A program made the position numbers and the translations under genes. Positions 4,000 to 14,861 of a DNA stretch of 53,967 nt are shown here, piece after piece; the first letter of the stretch is position 1, and each line of letters opens with the position of its first letter. The notes below the pieces were generated by a model. That model saw only the letters and a program-made list of their open reading frames with translations. It was not told the origin of the DNA and made no database searches. The DNA comes from Candidatus Peregrinibacteria bacterium (GTDB lineage: Bacteria > Patescibacteriota > Gracilibacteria > CAIRYL01), in contig JBAXIU010000003.1 of NCBI GenBank assembly GCA_037138215.1, positions 1 to 53,967 on the forward strand, read 5' to 3'.

Positions 4000-4071
4000 A
4001 AACAAAAGAAAGAGCTCAAAGTGGAGTATACAAAAAATTTCTTCCACCACCAACATTCTGTTTTTAAAAAA

Positions 4072-7246: not shown

Positions 7247-8749
7247 ATGTCTCCATTAAAACCTTTTTATATTACGACTTCCATTGCCTATGTAAATGGC
7301 GTTCCCCATGTGGGATTTGCCATGGAAAGTATTGAAGCCGATGTTTTAGCACGATGGGCACGCAAACAAGGACGAGAAACATTTTTTCTCACCGGAACTG
7401 ACGAGCACGGAAGCAAAGTGGCCAAAACCGCAAAAGAACGAGGAATTTTGCCGCAAGAACTCTGTGACGAAAACAGTGCGGAATTCCAAAAATTGGGAAA
7501 CGCACTTACGCTCTCAAACGACGATTTTATTCGCACGACAGATAAAGAAAGACATTGGACATCTGCTCAAAAAATTTGGGAAAAGCTGGCAGAAAATGGG
7601 GACTTAGAAAAACGGGCATATACCGCTCAGTATTGCAGTGGATGCGAAACATTTCTTACGGAAAAAGATTTAGTGGATGGACTTTGCCCTTTTCATAAAG
7701 TGGCGCCCGAAACCGTTTCAGAAGAAAATTATTTTTTTAAGCTTTCCAAATATTCCCAAGAAATTGCAGAACTGCTCCGCACGGACGCATTAAAAATTGT
7801 GCCCGATTTTAGAAAAAATGAGATTTTAAAAATGGCAGAGGAAGGATTTACTGATGTTTCTTTTTCTCGCCCGACCGAAAAAGTGAGTTGGGGAATTCCC
7901 GTTCCCGGAGACTTGTCTCAAACCATGTATGTGTGGTGTGATGCCCTCACAAATTATATTTCGGCATTGGGATATGGCAAAGAGGTAGAGCCGTTGCATG
8001 CAACGGCTCTACCGTTCCAAAAATTCTGGAATTCTGGCGAAGTGGTCCATGTCATTGGAAAAGATATTTTACGATTCCACGCGGGGATTTGGATTGGAAT
8101 GCTTCTTTCTGCCGGTATAAAAACGCCCGACAAAATTTTTGTGCACGGATTTCTTACCAGCGAAGGAGAAAAAATGAGTAAATCGCTCGGGAATGTGGTA
8201 GACCCGTTTTTGGAAGTAGAAAAATATGGAACAGATGCGCTGCGGTATTTTTTACTCCGAGAGGTTCCCGTAGGAAGAGATGCCGATTTTAGTCGCCAGA
8301 GATTTGAGGAAATTTACCAAGCGCATTTGGCAAACGGAATTGGAAATTTGTCATCTCGAGTTCATAAATTGTGCGAACGAAATTCGGTAGAGCCGTTGCA
8401 TGCAACGGCTCTACGCGACGATTTCACCCAAATAATCGCTAAAACCGAAAAAACCGTAACAGAAAAAATGGACGCATTTCTCATTCACGAAGCCATTCAA
8501 GAACTCTTTTTAGTGGTAGATTTTTGTGATAAACGCATGGACGAAGAAAAACCATGGCTTGCCAATGAAGATGGAACCGTAAAAATGGAACTTATGAAGT
8601 CTCTCCTTATTACCCTCCGATGGTTTGCAATGGAATTGGAACCCTTTTTGACCAATACGGCACAAAAAATGAAAAATATGTTTGGGGATAACGGGGAACC
8701 GTTGGGTGAAGGGCAAATGCTGTTTCCGAGGTTAGAGAAACTGGCGTAA
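7247..8749 (+). CDS. metG: Methionine--tRNA ligase (short form) carrying two in-frame REP insertions
   Basis: YVNGVPHVG, TGTDEHG, CSGC..CPFH knuckle, YVWCDAL, GKDILRFH, KMSKS. Confidence 0.97.
   Translation: MSPLKPFYITTSIAYVNGVPHVGFAMESIEADVLARWARKQGRETFFLTGTDEHGSKVAKTAKERGILPQELCDENSAEFQKLGNALTLSNDDFIRTTDKERHWTSAQKIWEKLAENGDLEKRAYTAQYCSGCETFLTEKDLVDGLCPFHKVAPETVSEENYFFKLSKYSQEIAELLRTDALKIVPDFRKNEILKMAEEGFTDVSFSRPTEKVSWGIPVPGDLSQTMYVWCDALTNYISALGYGKEVEPLHATALPFQKFWNSGEVVHVIGKDILRFHAGIWIGMLLSAGIKTPDKIFVHGFLTSEGEKMSKSLGNVVDPFLEVEKYGTDALRYFLLREVPVGRDADFSRQRFEEIYQAHLANGIGNLSSRVHKLCERNSVEPLHATALRDDFTQIIAKTEKTVTEKMDAFLIHEAIQELFLVVDFCDKRMDEEKPWLANEDGTVKMELMKSLLITLRWFAMELEPFLTNTAQKMKNMFGDNGEPLGEGQMLFPRLEKLA
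7985..8012. repeat. REP family A copy inside metG (encodes VEPLHATAL)
   Basis: Identical to 5676-5703; in frame at codon 247. Confidence 0.95.
8387..8414. repeat. REP family A copy inside metG (encodes VEPLHATAL)
   Basis: Identical to 5676-5703; in frame at codon 381. Confidence 0.95.
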
Positions 8750-8752
8750 TGT

Positions 8753-9538
8753 ATGCCCCATATCACCTTTCCCGTTGGCATTTCAATTGGTGAAAACTTT
8801 CTTCCCATTCATTTTTTCTTTGAAGTGCTCGCGTTTTATTTGGGGATTTCGTATTATTATCATTTACGCGCATCTCAAAAAGATCATTTTTCTGAATCGC
8901 AAAGACTCACGCTCCTCGTTTCAGCGTGTATCGGAGCACTTTTGGGCTCTCGTCTTTTAGCGGCACTAGAACACTACCAGTTTTTAGTAGAGCATTTTTC
9001 GTGGTTTTCTCTCACCCAATCTAAAACCATTGTGGGCGGCATTATTGGCGGGTGGATTGGTATTGAAACGGCAAAAAAATTTATGAAGATTACCACCTCC
9101 AGCGGTGACCTTTTCACTTTTCCGCTTATTTTTGCTATTATAGTGGGAAGAATTGGCTGTGCACTTACCGGTGTGTCGGATGGAACCGCGGGAGATCCAT
9201 CCGATTTGCCCTGGGCGTTTGACCAAGGCGATGGAATTGCACGGCACCCAACCGCACTGTACGAAATTTTATTCCTCGGTATTTTTTGGGCTATTTTATT
9301 ACTTTTAAAACAAAAATTTTCGCTCCAAAATGGAGATCTTTTTAAATTTTTTATGGTGGGCTACTCCCTGTGGAGAGTTCTCGTAGAATTTATAAAACCT
9401 GTTGATAGTCTTATTTTTGGATTATCCGCCATCCAAATTGCCTGCGTTTTTGTTCTTCTATATTATGTATGGGTTTTCATAAAACGATTTTATCCCCCTT
9501 TATGCCCGCACAAAGACCATACACCTACTATGACCTAA
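8753..9538 (+). CDS. Prolipoprotein diacylglyceryl transferase (Lgt)-family protein, divergent
   Basis: About 7 TM helices; GRIGC, HPTALYE and RVLVEFIK correspond to Lgt GRxGN, HPSQLYE and RF..EF.R. The usual SFHGG is replaced by TIVGG. Confidence 0.85.
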   Translation: MPHITFPVGISIGENFLPIHFFFEVLAFYLGISYYYHLRASQKDHFSESQRLTLLVSACIGALLGSRLLAALEHYQFLVEHFSWFSLTQSKTIVGGIIGGWIGIETAKKFMKITTSSGDLFTFPLIFAIIVGRIGCALTGVSDGTAGDPSDLPWAFDQGDGIARHPTALYEILFLGIFWAILLLLKQKFSLQNGDLFKFFMVGYSLWRVLVEFIKPVDSLIFGLSAIQIACVFVLLYYVWVFIKRFYPPLCPHKDHTPTMT

Positions 9539-10908
9539 CCATTAGCCTTTGCCCTACTTGTTTAAAACGGGTATATGGGAAAATTGTTTTTGAGAATGAC
9601 AAAGTGTTTATGCTCAAACACTGCAAAGAGCATGGGAGTTTTAAAGTGCTGATAGCCACAGATATTGAGTACTACAAAAAATGCCGACAATACGCCAAAA
9701 AAAGCGAAATGCCCTGCAAATTTAAAACCAAAGTGAAATACGGATGCCCGTATGATTGTGGGCTTTGTGAAGACCACGAGCAGCATTCGTGCTCTTCGGT
9801 CATCGAAGTGACTGATCGGTGTAATTTGAAATGTCCCACTTGTTATGCGTCTTCTTCTCCTACTTGTGGCGAACACCGCACGCTAGAAGAAATTGAGAAA
9901 ATGTTTGATATTATGGTAGAAAGCGAAGGCGAACCGGATGTCGTGCAGATCAGCGGAGGAGAGCCCACTATTCATCCTGATTTTTTTGCCATTTTAGATA
10001 TGGCGAAAACCAAACCTATTAAACACCTCCTGTTAAACACCAATGGCGTGCGCATTGCCACCGAAGAAGGTTTTGCAGAACGCCTTGCAACCTATATGCC
10101 CCAATTTGAGATTTATCTTCAGTGGGATAGCTTACGACCCGAAGTGCTGAAAAAATTTCGGGGAGCGGATCTTTCCGAAATCCGCAAAAAAGCGTTGGAA
10201 AAACTCAATGCCCTCAATCTCTCAACCACTCTGGTGGTGGTGGTACAAAAAGGCGCAAATGACGATGAGCTAGGGGAAATTGTTGAATTTGCAATGCAGC
10301 AGCCCTGCGTTCGAGGGATTACTTTTCAACCGGTACAATTTGCCGGAAGAAATGAAGACAGTACACCAGAAGACCGCATTACACCCACAGAAGTACGCCA
10401 GAAAATTATTGCGCAACAGAGCGTTTTTACTGCAAATGACCTTATTCCTGTTCCGTGCAACCCCGACACCCTCACAATGGCGTACGGGCTAAAAATCGGA
10501 GGATCTGTTCATGCACTTACAAGGTATATTGATCCGACCAAACTTTTGGAGGCATCCAAAAATACCATTGTGTTTGAGAGGGATGAACAGCTGAAAAAAA
10601 AGCTTATTGAACTGTTTTCTACGGGAAACTCTCCCGAAAGCTCATCCAAGATTTTTGGCAGTATGCTGTGCTGTTTGCCCAAAATAGTGGCACCAAAAAA
10701 CCTCAAATACGACAATATTTTCCGCATTCTTATTATGCACTTTCAAGACGCATACGATTTTGATGTGCGGGCGATTAAAAAGTCCTGCGTGCATATTGTG
10801 CATAAAGACGGGCGCATTATTCCTTTTGAAACCATGAACCTCTTCTACCGCAACAACGAAGATCTCCTCAAAACGCTCCAAAGAGAAGATGAGTCTTTTA
10901 CTTTTTAA
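9502..10908 (+). CDS. Radical SAM enzyme, Tes/GDGT-MAS (MJ0619)-like family
   Basis: N-terminal CPTC...CKEHG, GCPYDCGLCEDH...C, core CNLKCPTC, SGGEPT, C-terminal SCVH..DGRIIPF. Likely start ATG 9502. Confidence 0.85.
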   Translation: MPAQRPYTYYDLTISLCPTCLKRVYGKIVFENDKVFMLKHCKEHGSFKVLIATDIEYYKKCRQYAKKSEMPCKFKTKVKYGCPYDCGLCEDHEQHSCSSVIEVTDRCNLKCPTCYASSSPTCGEHRTLEEIEKMFDIMVESEGEPDVVQISGGEPTIHPDFFAILDMAKTKPIKHLLLNTNGVRIATEEGFAERLATYMPQFEIYLQWDSLRPEVLKKFRGADLSEIRKKALEKLNALNLSTTLVVVVQKGANDDELGEIVEFAMQQPCVRGITFQPVQFAGRNEDSTPEDRITPTEVRQKIIAQQSVFTANDLIPVPCNPDTLTMAYGLKIGGSVHALTRYIDPTKLLEASKNTIVFERDEQLKKKLIELFSTGNSPESSSKIFGSMLCCLPKIVAPKNLKYDNIFRILIMHFQDAYDFDVRAIKKSCVHIVHKDGRIIPFETMNLFYRNNEDLLKTLQREDESFTF

Positions 10909-10917
10909 CACTTTTTT

Positions 10918-11280
10918 ATGACAGATTTTGCAGAAGCAATGCAAGACATTCCACATACCCCAGAGATATCCGAAGAATCTTCTCCCCTAAAAAAAGAGAA
11001 AAAATTTCTTTGGAGGTTTTTTCAGTACTATTTTTTCGGCAGTATTGCCATGTATTTCTGTTTATATGCGAGGGTCTTCTCCGGTGATTTCGAAATTATT
11101 CTCATTTTTGCTCCCTTTGTAATCCCAACACTCGTTTCCATTTTTTACTTTTTTCGCGCCATTTACCTCTTGCTGGATCAGAATTTAGAAGCGTTTAAAT
11201 TTGCGCTACTGGTTATGATTATAAGCGCACTTATTGGGGCGGGCGTATGTGCTGGGAATATACAATTTTTGAGCTTTTAA
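10918..11280 (+). CDS. Small membrane protein with C-terminal IGAGVCxGN motif (paralog 1)
   Basis: Acidic N-terminus MTDFAEAMQDI, 3 hydrophobic segments, LIGAGVCAGNIQFL. Confidence 0.8.
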   Translation: MTDFAEAMQDIPHTPEISEESSPLKKEKKFLWRFFQYYFFGSIAMYFCLYARVFSGDFEIILIFAPFVIPTLVSIFYFFRAIYLLLDQNLEAFKFALLVMIISALIGAGVCAGNIQFLSF

Positions 11281-11312
11281 GCCTCTCTTACATAACCTTT
11301 TGTGATGAATAT

Positions 11313-11666
11313 ATGAAAGACTTTGCAGAAGCAATGCAAGACATTGCCCAACAACCAGAGGTGAATGAAGAAAATGCATCACTCACAAAAGAGAAAAAAT
11401 TGATGGGAAATATTTTAAAGTGCTATGGCCTATTTGTTGTGCTTTTTTGGGTATTATCTCCTGAGATTAATACTACTTACTTTCCACCAGTCGGGATCGC
11501 TTCATTCAGCCTTCCTTGTTTAGTTTCTGTTATTTATTTTTTTCGTATTGTATACTGCTTATTTCAAAAAAACTGGGAATCTTTTAAATTTTCAATCCTT
11601 ATTTTTTTTATGGGACTTATTATTGGCGCGGGAGTATGTTACGGAAATTTAACTTTTTTGGGGTAG
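11313..11666 (+). CDS. Small membrane protein with C-terminal IGAGVCxGN motif (paralog 2)
   Basis: Start ATG 11313 MKDFAEAMQDI matches paralog 1; IIGAGVCYGNLTFL. Confidence 0.8.
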   Translation: MKDFAEAMQDIAQQPEVNEENASLTKEKKLMGNILKCYGLFVVLFWVLSPEINTTYFPPVGIASFSLPCLVSVIYFFRIVYCLFQKNWESFKFSILIFFMGLIIGAGVCYGNLTFLG

Positions 11667-13870: not shown

Positions 13871-14143
13871 ATGATTTTTGATTGGAACGAGGTAAAAAAT
13901 GAGCTTTTAAAGCAAGACCGAAATATTTCTTTTGAGGAGGTGGTTATTGCTCTTCAGGATGAAAAAAAATTCTCTATTGCGAAATACCCTAATCCTGAAA
14001 AATATCCGAATCAAAAAATGTACATTCTCTCTCTTCAAGGTTATACCTATATGGTCCCGTTCGTTGATACCGAAAATGTGAGATACATAACAGGCATAAT
14101 TTCTCCTTTTTCTTGCTCCCTATTTCCTTTTTTGCCACAATAG
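13871..14143 (+). pseudogene. BrnT-family toxin, apparently 3'-truncated or degenerate; no antitoxin seen
   Basis: FDWNEVKNELLK.DRNISFEEV...YPNQ...YMVPFV matches BrnT-like proteins, but the usual LKTI.PSRK C-terminus is missing. Confidence 0.6.
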
Positions 14144-14148
14144 TTTCC

Positions 14149-14724
14149 GTGATTCAAAAATTCCCCATTCTTTTTTCGGCGCTTTTTCTCTTACTTTTTG
14201 CAGGATGTGGCACTGGAAGTGCTACGCCTTCAGTAGATCCTTCTTTGGCATTTGAAGGAAAAGCGTTTACCATTGGAATTCCCACTAACTGGGAAGTGTT
14301 TCCAGATACCGTTTTAGCCGGAAAAGGCGTAGATTTTGGAGCAAGAGACGCCAATGGCTTTGGAAAAATTGAAACGGTTATTGCGGTTACTTCGGAAGAT
14401 ATTCCCAATGGAGCCCCATTAGACCGCTTTACAACTCAATCTCTTGAAAATATCCGAAGACGATCACAGAATTTCCAAAAACAGTCCGAAGAGCCATTGA
14501 ATTTAGACGGGGTGCCTGCTACGCTGGTCCGGTACACGGATAGAAATGTGGTTGATCTTTCACAACTCCAGTTTTCCAGCATTTTTGCGGTCCATAATGG
14601 AAAAGCCTTTGTGGCAGTATTATCTATGGATTACGCCAAAACAGAGAGTGAAAAAACAAAACTGGAAGAAATTCTCAAGTCATTCCGGATAAAGGGGACT
14701 AGCCCCTCTCCCTCGTCTTCATAA
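14149..14724 (+). CDS. PsbP/DcrB-like lipoprotein
   Basis: GTG start, lipobox LLFAGC, FTIGIPTNW, LDGVPA, ILKSFRI C-terminus. Confidence 0.7.
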   Translation: MIQKFPILFSALFLLLFAGCGTGSATPSVDPSLAFEGKAFTIGIPTNWEVFPDTVLAGKGVDFGARDANGFGKIETVIAVTSEDIPNGAPLDRFTTQSLENIRRRSQNFQKQSEEPLNLDGVPATLVRYTDRNVVDLSQLQFSSIFAVHNGKAFVAVLSMDYAKTESEKTKLEEILKSFRIKGTSPSPSSS

Positions 14725-14786: not shown

Positions 14787-14861
14787 GGCGATGTGGCCAA
14801 GTGGTAAGGCAGGAGCCTGCAAAGCTCCCATTCGGCGGTTCGAATCCGCCCGTCGCCTCCA
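14787..14861 (+). tRNA. tRNA-Cys (GCA)
   Basis: Acceptor GGCGATG/CGTCGCC, anticodon arm GGAGC-CTGCAAA-GCTCC, T-arm GGTTCGAATCC, encoded CCA. Confidence 0.97.

Follow-up and report, generated by a model that had tools for sequence, protein, structure and literature searches.

In the stretch of DNA analyzed here (53,967 nt in total, hereafter the window), two genes for small membrane proteins, miniproteins A and B, close a cassette whose genes are all on the forward strand. A paralog of Lgt, the phosphatidylglycerol:prolipoprotein diacylglyceryl transferase that acts on lipobox prolipoproteins, is encoded first, a radical SAM enzyme similar to Tes/GDGT-MAS second, and the two miniproteins follow in tandem. 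The Lgt paralog gene (8753..9538, + strand; 261 aa) begins 3 nt after metG. The longest open reading frame (ORF) for the radical SAM enzyme (9469..10908, + strand) encodes 479 aa. Comparison with its ortholog in a related genome, G015, indicates that the true start is probably the ATG at 9502. Both candidate starts, 9469 and 9502, overlap the end of the Lgt paralog gene. Miniprotein A (10918..11280, + strand; 120 aa) consists of a polar leader and three transmembrane helices, and miniprotein B (11313..11666, + strand) is 117 aa long. A public record (P0009) calls miniprotein B from 11247, as a protein of 139 aa. The 22 additional residues of that ORF have no counterpart in miniprotein A or in any homolog, and the longer ORF overlaps miniprotein A by 34 nt; therefore, the ATG at 11313 was taken as the start. 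A scan for promoters and terminators yielded sites no more frequent than in shuffled sequence (11 versus 11.9 and 5 versus 6.7, respectively), so the limits of the operon are drawn from gene spacing. Base composition between positions 4000 and 16000 shows no island, with a GC content of 0.35-0.46 throughout.

Miniproteins A and B are identical at 51 of 119 residues (43%; BLASTP, E 1e-32), a similarity that, as judged from the two sequences, is far beyond chance. They had been described in the initial annotation as a paralog pair with similar N- and C-terminal blocks around a divergent middle, and two ORFs on the same strand with this identity confirm the description. Their N-termini share M-x-D-F-A-E-A-M-Q-D-I ... 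P-E ... E-E ... K-E-K-K and their C-termini share I-G-A-G-V-C-x-G-N-x-x-F-L; the divergence is greatest in the first helix and the loop behind it. They are the only copies in their genome, where the next match has an E value of 0.02 and contains internal stop codons. Neither protein belongs to a family in Pfam or NCBIfam (best scores 12-14 bits, under the cut-offs). A word-indexed protein search with miniprotein A returned its own cluster alone, and the ESM Atlas returned unnamed clusters only, with a top score of 0.91 that is within the chance range.

The narrow family around the two miniproteins is small. Its profile matches just 9 representatives at E <= 0.001 among 1.84 billion proteins. 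Members were found at eight loci, and the genomic context is known for three of them: the window, G015, and a Peribacteria contig (L020). P0010-P0015 represent the other five. Overall identity of the family members to miniprotein A is 26-43%. Among 10 members, G109, C111, and N114 (numbering of miniprotein A) are invariant and G107 is nearly so, and a cytoplasmic loop, Y-F-F-R/K ... W-E-S-F-K-F, is fairly conserved. Homologs lacking the Cys, which the initial annotation had named as evidence against its proposal, are absent from these members (Cys in 10/10). The motif is G107-A-G-V-C111-A-G-N114 in miniprotein A (11236..11259, + strand; Cys codon 11248-11250) and G105-A-G-V-C109-Y-G-N112 in miniprotein B (11625..11648, + strand; Cys codon 11637-11639).

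The Cys is residue 111 of 120 in miniprotein A and residue 109 of 117 in miniprotein B, on the third helix in both. The AlphaFold2 model of miniprotein A (pLDDT 84) contains helices at residues 23-50, 57-86, and 90-119, and Lys and Arg residues lie beside the predicted cytoplasmic helix ends. Both miniproteins are thus predicted to be three-helix membrane proteins with the Cys close to the outer end of helix 3, which runs in-to-out. In this prediction, the Cys lies toward the outside, a point that the initial annotation had proposed to check. The comparison with an inverted lipoprotein signal holds in one respect, namely the C-terminal position of the motif. Its carrier helix runs in-to-out, however, and thus crosses the membrane in the same direction as the signal peptide of an ordinary lipoprotein, without inversion of the geometry. 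Neither miniprotein has the canonical lipobox of a prolipoprotein, as there is no N-terminal signal peptide ending with [LVI][ASTVI][GAS]C and the residue preceding the Cys is V.

The association of these miniproteins with the two enzymes was observed beyond the window. Among 61 related genomes, credible matches to the miniprotein family are present only in the window genome and in G015, and G015 is the only one of the 61 relatives searched that has the radical SAM enzyme. Its gene order is Lgt-like, radical SAM, and one miniprotein; hence the single relative with the family has the enzyme pair adjacent, and the independent occurrence that would have argued against the proposal was not observed there. 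In L020, the miniprotein is directly behind the radical SAM gene. Between the window genome and G015, identity is 87% for the radical SAM enzyme, 69% for the Lgt paralog, and 35-38% for the miniproteins.

Loci collected with either enzyme as the query come from at least five bacterial phyla, and they generally encode both enzymes together with small membrane proteins that carry the motif [LVI][ILV][GS]F[GSP]xC. These small proteins are otherwise unrelated to each other, and there are one to four tandem paralogs per locus. Of the 19 bacterial loci collected with the radical SAM enzyme, 16 encode the Lgt paralog, and in two of the three exceptions no upstream sequence is available. Small membrane proteins with a Cys embedded in a helix were likewise detected next to these genes in 16 loci; the three without them are L025, L038, and L029, and in the last of these no sequence precedes the Lgt-like gene. 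Among 80 metagenome loci collected with the Lgt paralog, 66 have the radical SAM gene by phmmer and one more has it at the contig end by tblastn. Eight of the 13 remaining loci end less than 600 bp from the Lgt gene. L106, L126, and L108/L109 (identical hits) contain the Lgt paralog and neither a radical SAM gene nor an evident miniprotein nearby. In L124, the Lgt paralog and a motif-bearing miniprotein are present and the radical SAM gene is absent, which links the miniprotein to the Lgt paralog specifically. In one Gracilibacteria genome (G264), four Cys-bearing membrane proteins are encoded upstream of the radical SAM gene, and no Lgt paralog was found among the ORFs listed over roughly 2.4 kb before and 3.1 kb after that gene.

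We define the cassette, which has no name, by a small membrane protein encoded beside both enzymes on the same strand, with a Cys near the outer end of an in-to-out helix in the motif [LVI][ILV][GS]x[GSP]xC. An automatic rule found a small ORF with the motif in 34 of 48 loci, or 0.63 per kb on one strand, against 0.064 per kb on both strands in control sequence at least 1.5 kb from the enzyme pair. In 10 of the 14 loci missed by the rule, such an ORF was recognized by eye. Over 41 distinct contexts, position -6 relative to the Cys is L/V/I in 39, position -5 is I/L/V in 38, position -4 is G in 28 or S in 8, position -3 is F in 22, and position -2 is G/S/P in 35. The residue just before the Cys is bulky or polar (V, I, L, S, T). 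The sequence L-I-G-A-G-V-C in the window fits both this consensus and the definition above. The motif is carried by the last helix, where a median of 8 residues follows the Cys, or, in Acidobacteria, by the first. One tandem paralog in L120 has no Cys at the motif position. The distribution of the cassette is patchy, with 4 carriers among 301 genomes of the class and 8 among 61 genomes of one acidobacterial family. Its carriers include Chitinophaga, Flavobacterium, Aquimarina, Duganella, Peribacteria, and Acidobacteriaceae. No published account of the gene trio was found.

The Lgt paralog matches Pfam LGT (PF01790) with 86.5 bits against a cut-off of 24.9. It is under every NCBIfam Lgt equivalog cut-off (TIGR00544 and PRK00052 models; 40-56 bits versus 119-334). 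The canonical Lgt of the same genome is encoded on another contig (C38; 215 bits) and is 29% identical to the paralog. For E. coli Lgt, we take H103, R143, N146, E151, Y235, R239, and E243 to be the residues reported as important. Like Lgt (PDB 5AZB/5AZC), the cassette enzyme retains the counterparts of R143, Y235, R239, and E243. Unlike Lgt, it belongs to a second paralogous subfamily with an invariant G-R-x-G-C, and the positions of H103, N146, and E151 are occupied by V, an invariant C, and V or S, respectively. These losses imply that its chemistry or its lipid donor may differ from those of Lgt. A third LGT-family gene in the genome, on contig C9, was considered as part of a second cassette and rejected, as its neighbors include no radical SAM gene.

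The radical SAM enzyme (Pfam Zn_ribbon_HMPTM and Radical_SAM) is a full-length homolog of the archaeal tetraether lipid synthase Tes/GDGT-MAS (MJ0619), matching PDB 7TOL at residues 23-463 with an E value of 2.4e-65; a second structure is 7TOM. The two share the N-terminal zinc ribbon, the auxiliary-cluster motif C-P-Y-D-C-G-L-C, and the radical SAM motif CX3CX2C; the cysteines of these elements are invariant in 18 sequences. The cassette enzyme differs in being bacterial, in being paired with the Lgt paralog and the miniproteins, and in three additional cysteines, C330, C401, and C402, which are invariant in its clade and aligned with S, S, and V of GDGT-MAS. In contrast to the proteins covered by the NCBIfam models for TrsS (NF045646) and Tes (NF045702), it is under both curated cut-offs (333 bits versus 490, and 278 bits versus 450). 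Ten full-length cassette enzymes score 308-344 bits with TrsS and 263-306 bits with Tes against the same cut-offs, and the eleventh, truncated to 273 aa, scores lower and is likewise below both. TrsS is a name that appears in a table of a selenoprotein review (PMC13188914). The radical SAM sequence contains neither a signal peptide nor a transmembrane helix.

Co-folding of the Lgt paralog with miniprotein A gave an ipSAE of 0.68, and the best of three controls gave 0.00, so that the controls were passed. Of solved complexes, 116 of 157 reach the mark applied, as do 2 of 215 mismatched pairs; because the alignments were our own, these counts apply only roughly. At least 90% of contacts recur between runs, and the partner has a pLDDT of 75 or more. 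In the predicted interface, helix 3 of miniprotein A (residues 90-119, including 108-114) faces residues 7-32, 48-63, 85-91, and 142 of the Lgt paralog. The controls were unrelated natural proteins, possibly not membrane proteins, so generic packing of helices in a membrane-like model may account for the co-fold.

Taken with the invariance of the Cys, the co-occurrence of the genes, and the motif shared across loci, the co-fold supports the original proposal that the C-terminal Cys motif marks substrates or partners of the adjacent enzymes in a lipobox-like manner. As in the lipobox, the candidate target Cys lies at the outer end of a hydrophobic helix that runs in-to-out, with small residues before it. 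The cassette motif differs from the lipobox in [LVI][ILV][GS]F[GSP]xC, with a non-small residue just before the Cys, in its location on the last helix of a polytopic miniprotein, and in its tie to a radical SAM enzyme. Due to this location and the short segment after the Cys, cleavage by signal peptidase II is unlikely.

Two other C-terminal systems were compared. The 'lipo-invert' domain (invert_tail, NF058595), for which no paper under that name was found, resembles the miniproteins in its C-terminal hairpin of an out-to-in helix, an Arg-rich cytoplasmic turn, and an in-to-out helix that ends in a lipobox Cys. Its true members differ in that they are tails of large secreted proteins, with an Ig-like strand on either side and a lipobox of the canonical type. 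The profile is matched weakly by seven of 45 cassette miniproteins (8-16 bits, profile positions 26-75; cut-off 37 bits), and the window miniproteins (P0001, P0004, P0006) do not match it at E <= 10. These tails are present in 56 of 61 genomes of the acidobacterial family in which 8 of 61 have the cassette radical SAM enzyme, indicating that they are independent of the cassette. One genome (G350) has the enzyme and no tail; the tails were rejected as clients of the cassette on these grounds. MYXO-CTERM/myxosortase tags are also C-terminal and have an invariant Cys beside a transmembrane helix. That Cys is predicted, in a passage of PMC11980579, to be lipidated by an unidentified 'Lgt-like' enzyme. 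Unlike the miniprotein Cys, it precedes an out-to-in helix, in inverted topology; a CPBP protease cleaves the helix off, the clients are large secreted proteins, and there is no radical SAM enzyme.

On balance, we favor, by a modest degree, the interpretation that the miniproteins are dedicated, uncleaved substrates that are lipidated on the motif Cys, followed by remodeling of the lipid by the radical SAM enzyme. The miniprotein would be inserted with a cytoplasmic N-terminus and an external C-terminus, which would bring the invariant Cys of [LVI][ILV]-G-x-G-[VI]-C close to where the last, in-to-out helix ends in the outer leaflet, in the geometry of the lipobox Cys on a signal peptide. The Lgt paralog would dock this helix and transfer a lipid to the thiol; by analogy, it may be diacylglyceryl from a phospholipid. 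Without signal-peptidase cleavage, the product would be a lipidated polytopic proteolipid. The cytoplasmic radical SAM enzyme might then modify the attached lipid, for example by carbon-carbon coupling of its tails. The variable copy number and the shift of the motif between helices are consistent with substrate-like behavior.

If the Cys is lipidated, the cassette would represent a second, substrate-dedicated branch of bacterial protein lipidation, acting on polytopic miniproteins without cleavage of a signal peptide, and the first link of Lgt-type chemistry to a Tes-type radical enzyme. A more specific and distinctly more tentative version is a protein-anchored bolalipid, in which the Tes-like enzyme would link the tails on the S-lipidated helix Cys through carbon-carbon bonds, whether with one another to give a macrocycle or with a lipid of the other leaflet to give a membrane-spanning form; such a conjugate would staple the bilayer. 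Bacterial Tes homologs are proposed as makers of branched tetraether lipids, which are climate proxies, in a passage of Zeng et al. 2022 (PMC8941075). If the bolalipid version is correct, the present clade of these homologs would not be free-lipid tetraether synthases, and this would extend to its representatives in Acidobacteriaceae. In the loci examined, the clade is nearly always encoded with the Lgt paralog and Cys miniproteins, and assignment of lipid sources by gene presence should allow for this. The cassette is short, patchy, and present in culturable Chitinophaga, Flavobacterium, and Duganella, and is therefore directly testable.

The main alternative, which we consider appreciably less probable than the substrate role, is an accessory role for the miniproteins, as subunits that would anchor, scaffold, or regulate a membrane complex formed by the Lgt paralog with the radical SAM enzyme. 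This complex would make a modified free lipid, such as the tail-coupled or membrane-spanning lipids proposed for bacterial Tes homologs, and the Cys would be a catalytic thiol or a ligand of a metal or cluster. The genomic association and the passing co-fold would be expected for a stable subunit no less than for a substrate, and the fairly conserved cytoplasmic loop could dock a cytoplasmic enzyme. The full-length homology of the radical SAM enzyme to an enzyme coupling lipid tails, and the presence of the cassette in Acidobacteriaceae, agree with this alternative as well. However, three architectures with the motif alone in common, in one to four copies, show a variability that is rare in subunits, and the miniproteins of the window genome and G015 have diverged far more than the two enzymes. 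One Cys by itself cannot hold a cluster, and L124, which lacks the radical SAM gene, retains the Lgt paralog and a miniprotein. Moreover, most carriers (Chitinophaga, Flavobacterium, Aquimarina, Duganella, and Peribacteria) are not known as tetraether producers.

It is improbable that the radical SAM enzyme itself acts on the Cys, forming a thioether to an unactivated lipid carbon, with the Lgt paralog supplying or positioning the lipid. By analogy with Tes, whose mechanism involves a substrate carbon bonded to cluster sulfur according to a passage of a 2026 review (PMC13459092), such a reaction is conceivable. The three clade-specific cysteines and the loss of the H103, N146, and E151 counterparts in the Lgt paralog would be in line with it. 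However, the Cys is predicted near the outer leaflet, and an enzyme with neither a signal peptide nor a transmembrane helix needs cytoplasmic SAM and reductant. The motif-bearing miniprotein is kept in L124 where this enzyme is missing, and the co-fold puts the motif helix on the Lgt paralog.

The leaders of miniprotein A (residues 1-30; 10918..11007, + strand) and miniprotein B (11313..11402, + strand) are identical at 19 of 30 residues, compared with 32 of 87 in the remainder. In the model, there is no long helix before residue 23, where confidence is low (pLDDT 64 and 57). A RiPP-like precursor, whose conserved acidic leader is recognized by a radical SAM maturase, would fit this best-conserved stretch between A and B, the tandem precursor genes beside a radical SAM enzyme that are typical of RiPP loci, and the conserved acidic cytoplasmic tail that ends the acidobacterial versions, but it is very improbable because D-F-A-E-A-M-Q-D-I is present in 2 of 10 family members (A and B) and missing from the other eight, including the G015 ortholog beside an 87%-identical enzyme, the conserved element is a C-terminal helix, the reverse of a RiPP precursor, the proteins are predicted to be integral three-helix membrane proteins, no protease or exporter is encoded among the cassette ORFs, and the enzyme is in the Tes/TrsS branch, with SPASM peptide maturase models scoring at most 52 bits. 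The conserved enzyme-recognition leader of the initial annotation is not supported either, in view of the same restriction to A and B and of the low-confidence segment before residue 23 of the model. At the DNA level, one 24-nt block of the two leaders is identical at 24 of 24 positions, and identical residues use the same codon at 15 of 17 positions in residues 1-30 versus 18 of 32 elsewhere (Fisher p = 0.028). Local gene conversion fits these near-identical codons better than a family-wide recognition sequence. The tail of the acidobacterial versions implies that an acidic cytoplasmic handle may recur.

Two ORFs lie on one strand of the window, at 10918-11280 (paralog A, 120 aa) and 11247-11666 (paralog B). 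For paralog B the ATG at 11313 is preferred over the start at 11247, because the alignment with paralog A then runs from the first residue; this gives a protein of 117 aa at 11313-11666. The 11247 start is used in one public record (P0009, 139 aa). The initial annotation described tandem paralogs with a common start, a common cysteine-containing end, and a divergent first helix and loop, and the alignment bears this out. The proteins are identical at 51 of 119 residues (43%; BLASTP, E = 1e-32). Both start with M-x-D-F-A-E-A-M-Q-D-I and end with I-G-A-G-V-C-x-G-N, and the first helix and the loop after it are their least similar parts. A search of the genome revealed no third copy.

The 5' ends (within 10921-10950 and 11316-11345) share 24 nt of DNA with 100% identity, synonymous sites included, whereas protein identity outside the leader falls to 37%. 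The same codon is used at 15 of 17 identical residues within residues 1-30, versus 18 of 32 elsewhere (Fisher p = 0.028). Two causes could explain the likeness of the leader DNA: local gene conversion, or a nucleotide-level constraint that acts on the 5' ends as DNA or RNA, for example through translation initiation or an RNA element.

The paralogs end a tight row of genes on the same strand. The row starts with metG (7247-8749), followed by an LGT-family gene (8753-9538) and an overlapping radical SAM gene (9469-10908, with a likely start at 9502). Paralog A follows after 9 nt, and paralog B after a further 32 nt. The LGT-family protein, hereafter the Lgt paralog, passes the Pfam LGT cut-off (86.5 bits; cut-off 24.9) and falls under the NCBIfam Lgt equivalog cut-offs. 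It is one of three LGT-family proteins of the genome. The canonical Lgt is encoded on another contig, C38 (215 bits), and is 29% identical to the Lgt paralog. Its motifs are S-I-H-G-G and G-R-F-G-N-F-I-N-G-E, in contrast to T-I-V-G-G and G-R-I-G-C-A-L-T-G-V in the Lgt paralog. H103, R143, N146, E151, Y235, R239, and E243 are reported to matter in E. coli Lgt. By comparison with the structure of that enzyme (5AZB), the Lgt paralog retains the counterparts of R143, Y235, R239, and E243 but lacks those of H103, N146, and E151. The cysteine of G-R-x-G-C is invariant across 17 Lgt paralogs from similar loci. The third LGT-family gene, on contig C9 (L102 1447-2301, minus strand; 284 aa, 65 bits), adjoins genes for two membrane proteins, one with a zinc ribbon and the other large and coiled-coil. 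A 203-aa ORF at 14113-14724 (+) of the window has a canonical N-terminal lipoprotein signal (L-L-F-A-G-C-G-T-G); ordinary lipoproteins are therefore also present for the canonical Lgt. A tRNA-Cys (GCA) gene is located at 14787-14861 (+).

The radical SAM enzyme consists of an HMPTM-type zinc ribbon and a radical SAM domain. Residues 23-463 align with the archaeal tetraether lipid synthase GDGT-MAS, or Tes (PDB 7TOL; E = 2.4e-65). Its scores miss the cut-offs of two NCBIfam models, TrsS (333 bits; cut-off 490) and Tes (278 bits; cut-off 450). The same is true of 11 further enzymes from similar loci, of which the 10 full-length ones score 308-344 bits and 263-306 bits, respectively. Because of these scores, the clade has no curated name. 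C330, C401, and C402 are invariant in 18 clade members, in addition to the cysteines common with GDGT-MAS, which has S, S, and V at these positions.

Neither paralog matched any Pfam or NCBIfam family, and a word-indexed protein search with paralog A returned only its own entry. A profile search from the two paralogs had been proposed; it was run with an ortholog from a relative (G015) added. Among 1.84 billion representatives, nine proteins matched at E <= 0.001, all of 113-139 aa. In the alignment of ten family members, M1, E27, Y38, Y77, G109, C111, and N114 are invariant. The initial annotation had regarded the proteins as substrates of the neighboring enzymes with a RiPP-like recognition leader. 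The leader part of that view did not survive, since D-F-A-E-A-M-Q-D-I is absent from eight of the ten members, all except paralogs A and B.

The AlphaFold2 model of paralog A, based on the same ten sequences, has a mean pLDDT of 84 and three helices (23-50, 57-86, and 90-119); its N-terminus is of low confidence. K-K-E-K-K and R33 precede helix 1, and R80 and K94 flank the turn between helices 2 and 3. Membrane helices can be oriented by the positive-inside rule, which here predicts a cytoplasmic N-terminus and an outside C-terminus. Cys111, about 16 residues into helix 3, is consequently predicted to lie in the outer leaflet. The side on which the cysteine faces, a question raised at the outset, is thus predicted to be the outside.

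The scan with the radical SAM enzyme found 19 bacterial loci and 61 loci at about 25-30% identity, 60 of which are titled as Thermoplasmata-lineage archaea. The bacterial loci belong to Chitinophaga, Xanthocytophaga, Aquimarina, Flavobacterium, Acidobacteriaceae, Duganella, Moraxellaceae, another Pseudomonadota MAG, Fusobacteriaceae, and Peribacteria. An Lgt paralog is present in 16 of the 19; of the three loci without one, two lack DNA upstream. In 16 of the 19 as well, the enzyme pair is adjoined by small membrane proteins that have a cysteine embedded in a helix; none was found in L025, L029, or L038. These miniproteins are diverse. They are 56-75 aa with two helices and downstream of the pair in Flavobacteriia, about 89 aa in Chitinophaga, two tandem copies in Fusobacteriaceae, and a single upstream copy in Duganella. 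Acidobacteriaceae have two to four copies in tandem, located between the enzyme genes; here the first helix carries the motif and the C-terminal tail is acidic.

In the scan with the Lgt paralog, the best 80 loci of 573 relatives were examined. A radical SAM gene is present in 66 (phmmer) and in one more at a contig end (tblastn). In eight of the 13 others, the sequence stops no more than 600 bp from the Lgt gene. In five loci the radical SAM gene is absent despite room (L106, L108, L109, which is the same hit as L108, L124, and L126). In L124 (1550-2550, +), the Lgt paralog is directly followed by a 90-aa miniprotein with the motif (V-I-G-F-S-S-C-W). The next gene there resembles a B12-binding mutase subunit.

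The cysteine motif was also searched for with an automatic rule. It accepted ORFs of <=200 aa on the strand of the pair and no more than 700 bp away from it, provided that 15 hydrophobic residues preceded a cysteine that had G/A/S/P at -1 or -2. Candidates were found in 34 of 48 loci with a near-complete pair, at 0.63 per kb, versus a background of 0.064 per kb on both strands at >=1.5 kb from the pair. Reading the 14 misses by eye revealed a candidate in 10; the other four loci end at the end of the radical SAM gene or within ~120 nt of it. The consensus over 41 distinct contexts is [LVI][ILV][GS]F[GSP]xC, followed in the downstream type by a median of 8 residues. L120 (3007-3706, +) has two tandem miniproteins downstream of the pair, one with S-F-P-T-C and the other with S-F-P-A-Y. 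The copy lacking the cysteine may serve as a decoy or a regulator, or may be decaying. In L135 (5762-7545) and L174 (5756-7533), both (+), the radical SAM ORF is ~550 aa with an N-terminal extension. Just upstream, another frame encodes a short hydrophobic segment containing G-G-S-C-F-G or C-G-S-C-F-G, which may represent a fusion or a frameshifted miniprotein.

Within the lineage the cassette, that is the enzyme pair with its miniproteins, has a patchy distribution. Among 61 relatives, credible miniprotein matches are restricted to this genome (G000) and G015, and the radical SAM enzyme is found in 4 of 301 genomes of the class (G000, G015, G140, and G264). The congener G001 and the same-family G006 keep the STAS gene and metG but have other genes after metG; the cassette is therefore considered an accessory insertion here. 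The region has no compositional signature. In G015 the order is Lgt-like, radical SAM, and one miniprotein without the leader. Between G000 and G015, the radical SAM enzymes are 87% identical and the Lgt paralogs 69%; the two possible miniprotein pairs reach 35% and 38%. The 87% is a value across two families, whereas metG, even within one, reaches 64-74%. A 228-aa transposase-like ORF (L013 9114-9800, minus strand) is directly upstream of the G015 cassette, and integrase-like ORFs flank the region. These ORFs fit a lateral transfer of the cassette from one Peribacteria lineage to another.

In G264 (table 25), TGA is a sense codon, and ten in-frame TGA codons are present in the Tes-like enzyme. 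Four tandem, paralogous, cysteine-bearing multi-pass membrane proteins (159-292 aa) are encoded upstream (L018 2008-4733, +); the first helix of at least three of them, at the very start of the protein, ends in [AG]-C-G-G. The listed ORFs, which cover ~2.4 kb upstream and 3.1 kb downstream of the Tes-like gene, include no Lgt paralog. The G140 Tes-like gene (L019 4579-5964, +), near which no Lgt paralog was seen, apparently falls into two ORFs (291 and 144 aa), its match being interrupted by one TGA and one TAA; pseudogene formation or faulty assembly may account for this.

Co-folding of the leader with the Lgt-like or the radical SAM protein had been suggested; the Lgt paralog (alignment of 17) was run with paralog A (alignment of 10). 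The ipSAE was 0.68, versus 0.00 for the best of three controls, which are possibly not membrane proteins. Of 157 solved complexes, 116 attain this ipSAE mark, as do 2 of 215 mismatched pairs; with custom alignments these counts are only rough. At least 90% of contacts are common to the runs, and the pLDDT of the partner is at least 75. Helix 3 of paralog A, including 108-114, is modeled against residues 7-32, 48-63, 85-91, and 142 of the Lgt paralog. A sequence search found two Lgt entries in the PDB, 5AZB and 5AZC, neither of which is known to contain a protein substrate. As a prediction, the model supports binding of paralog A by the Lgt paralog.

We place high confidence in the association of the miniproteins with the enzyme pair. 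LGT-family enzymes have one known activity, the attachment of a lipid through a thioether to a cysteine where an in-to-out signal helix reaches its outer end. Such a cysteine is the only feature common to the miniproteins across phyla. Their copy number and architecture vary, as in substrates. These points, and the presence of a miniprotein beside the Lgt paralog in L124, which has no radical SAM gene, lead us to favor, by a modest preference, miniproteins as dedicated, uncleaved lipidation substrates. The view of the paralogs as substrates of their neighbors thus stands, on the cysteine motif, the association, and the co-fold. The Lgt paralog would lipidate the cysteine, with no cleavage. The Tes-like enzyme would act later, on the attached lipid, for example in the manner of the tail coupling by GDGT-MAS; this role is inferred only by analogy. 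Among the rivals, it is less probable, though still to be taken seriously, that the miniproteins are accessory subunits of a free-lipid pathway; their variability speaks against it. Direct formation of the thioether by the radical SAM enzyme ranks next and is improbable. A RiPP leader is very improbable, as only this genome has the leader and conservation lies in the C-terminal helix.

The trio in the window is a CPR-lineage variant of a widespread cassette for which no published description was found. In the accessible literature, no paper was found that joins tetraether lipid synthase with diacylglyceryl transferase, nor one on a gene neighborhood of Lgt, radical SAM, and lipoprotein, nor one on lipo-invert domains. 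Among the matches listed, none on Lgt paralogs concerned the cassette by title or abstract, and none on C-terminal or internal lipoboxes was relevant by title. In the accessible portions of the literature, TrsS appears with radical SAM only as a table entry. Zeng et al. (2022), in the accessible text, report 456 bacterial Tes homologs with no assigned function and propose a branched-tetraether role (PMC8941075); the accessible part of a 2026 review adds nothing on them (PMC13459092). New here are the family of three-helix miniproteins of Peribacteria type, with its private leader, the lipo-invert comparison, the locus of Lgt paralog and miniprotein with no radical SAM gene, and the controlled co-fold for this copy.

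MYXO-CTERM tags are one analog; according to the accessible text of PMC11980579, their cysteine is predicted to be lipidated by an Lgt-like enzyme. Another is NF058595 (NCBIfam release 20), "lipo-invert putative C-terminal anchoring domain", which weakly matches 7 of 45 cassette miniproteins and does not match the paralogs of the window. Its true members, in an acidobacterial genome, differ in being tails of large proteins, with a helix, an Arg-rich turn, a helix, and a canonical lipobox. In one acidobacterial family, such tails are present in 56 of 61 genomes and the cassette radical SAM enzyme in 8 of 61 (54 and 7 of 59 when G307 and G330, flagged as unpublished, are left out). The architecture is therefore analogous to the cassette yet independent of it. 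The domains, such as one in G303 (L183 1402-1845, +), look like an Ig-like domain split by a two-helix hairpin with a canonical lipobox cysteine. The matches number 1 to 23 per genome in the 56 genomes.
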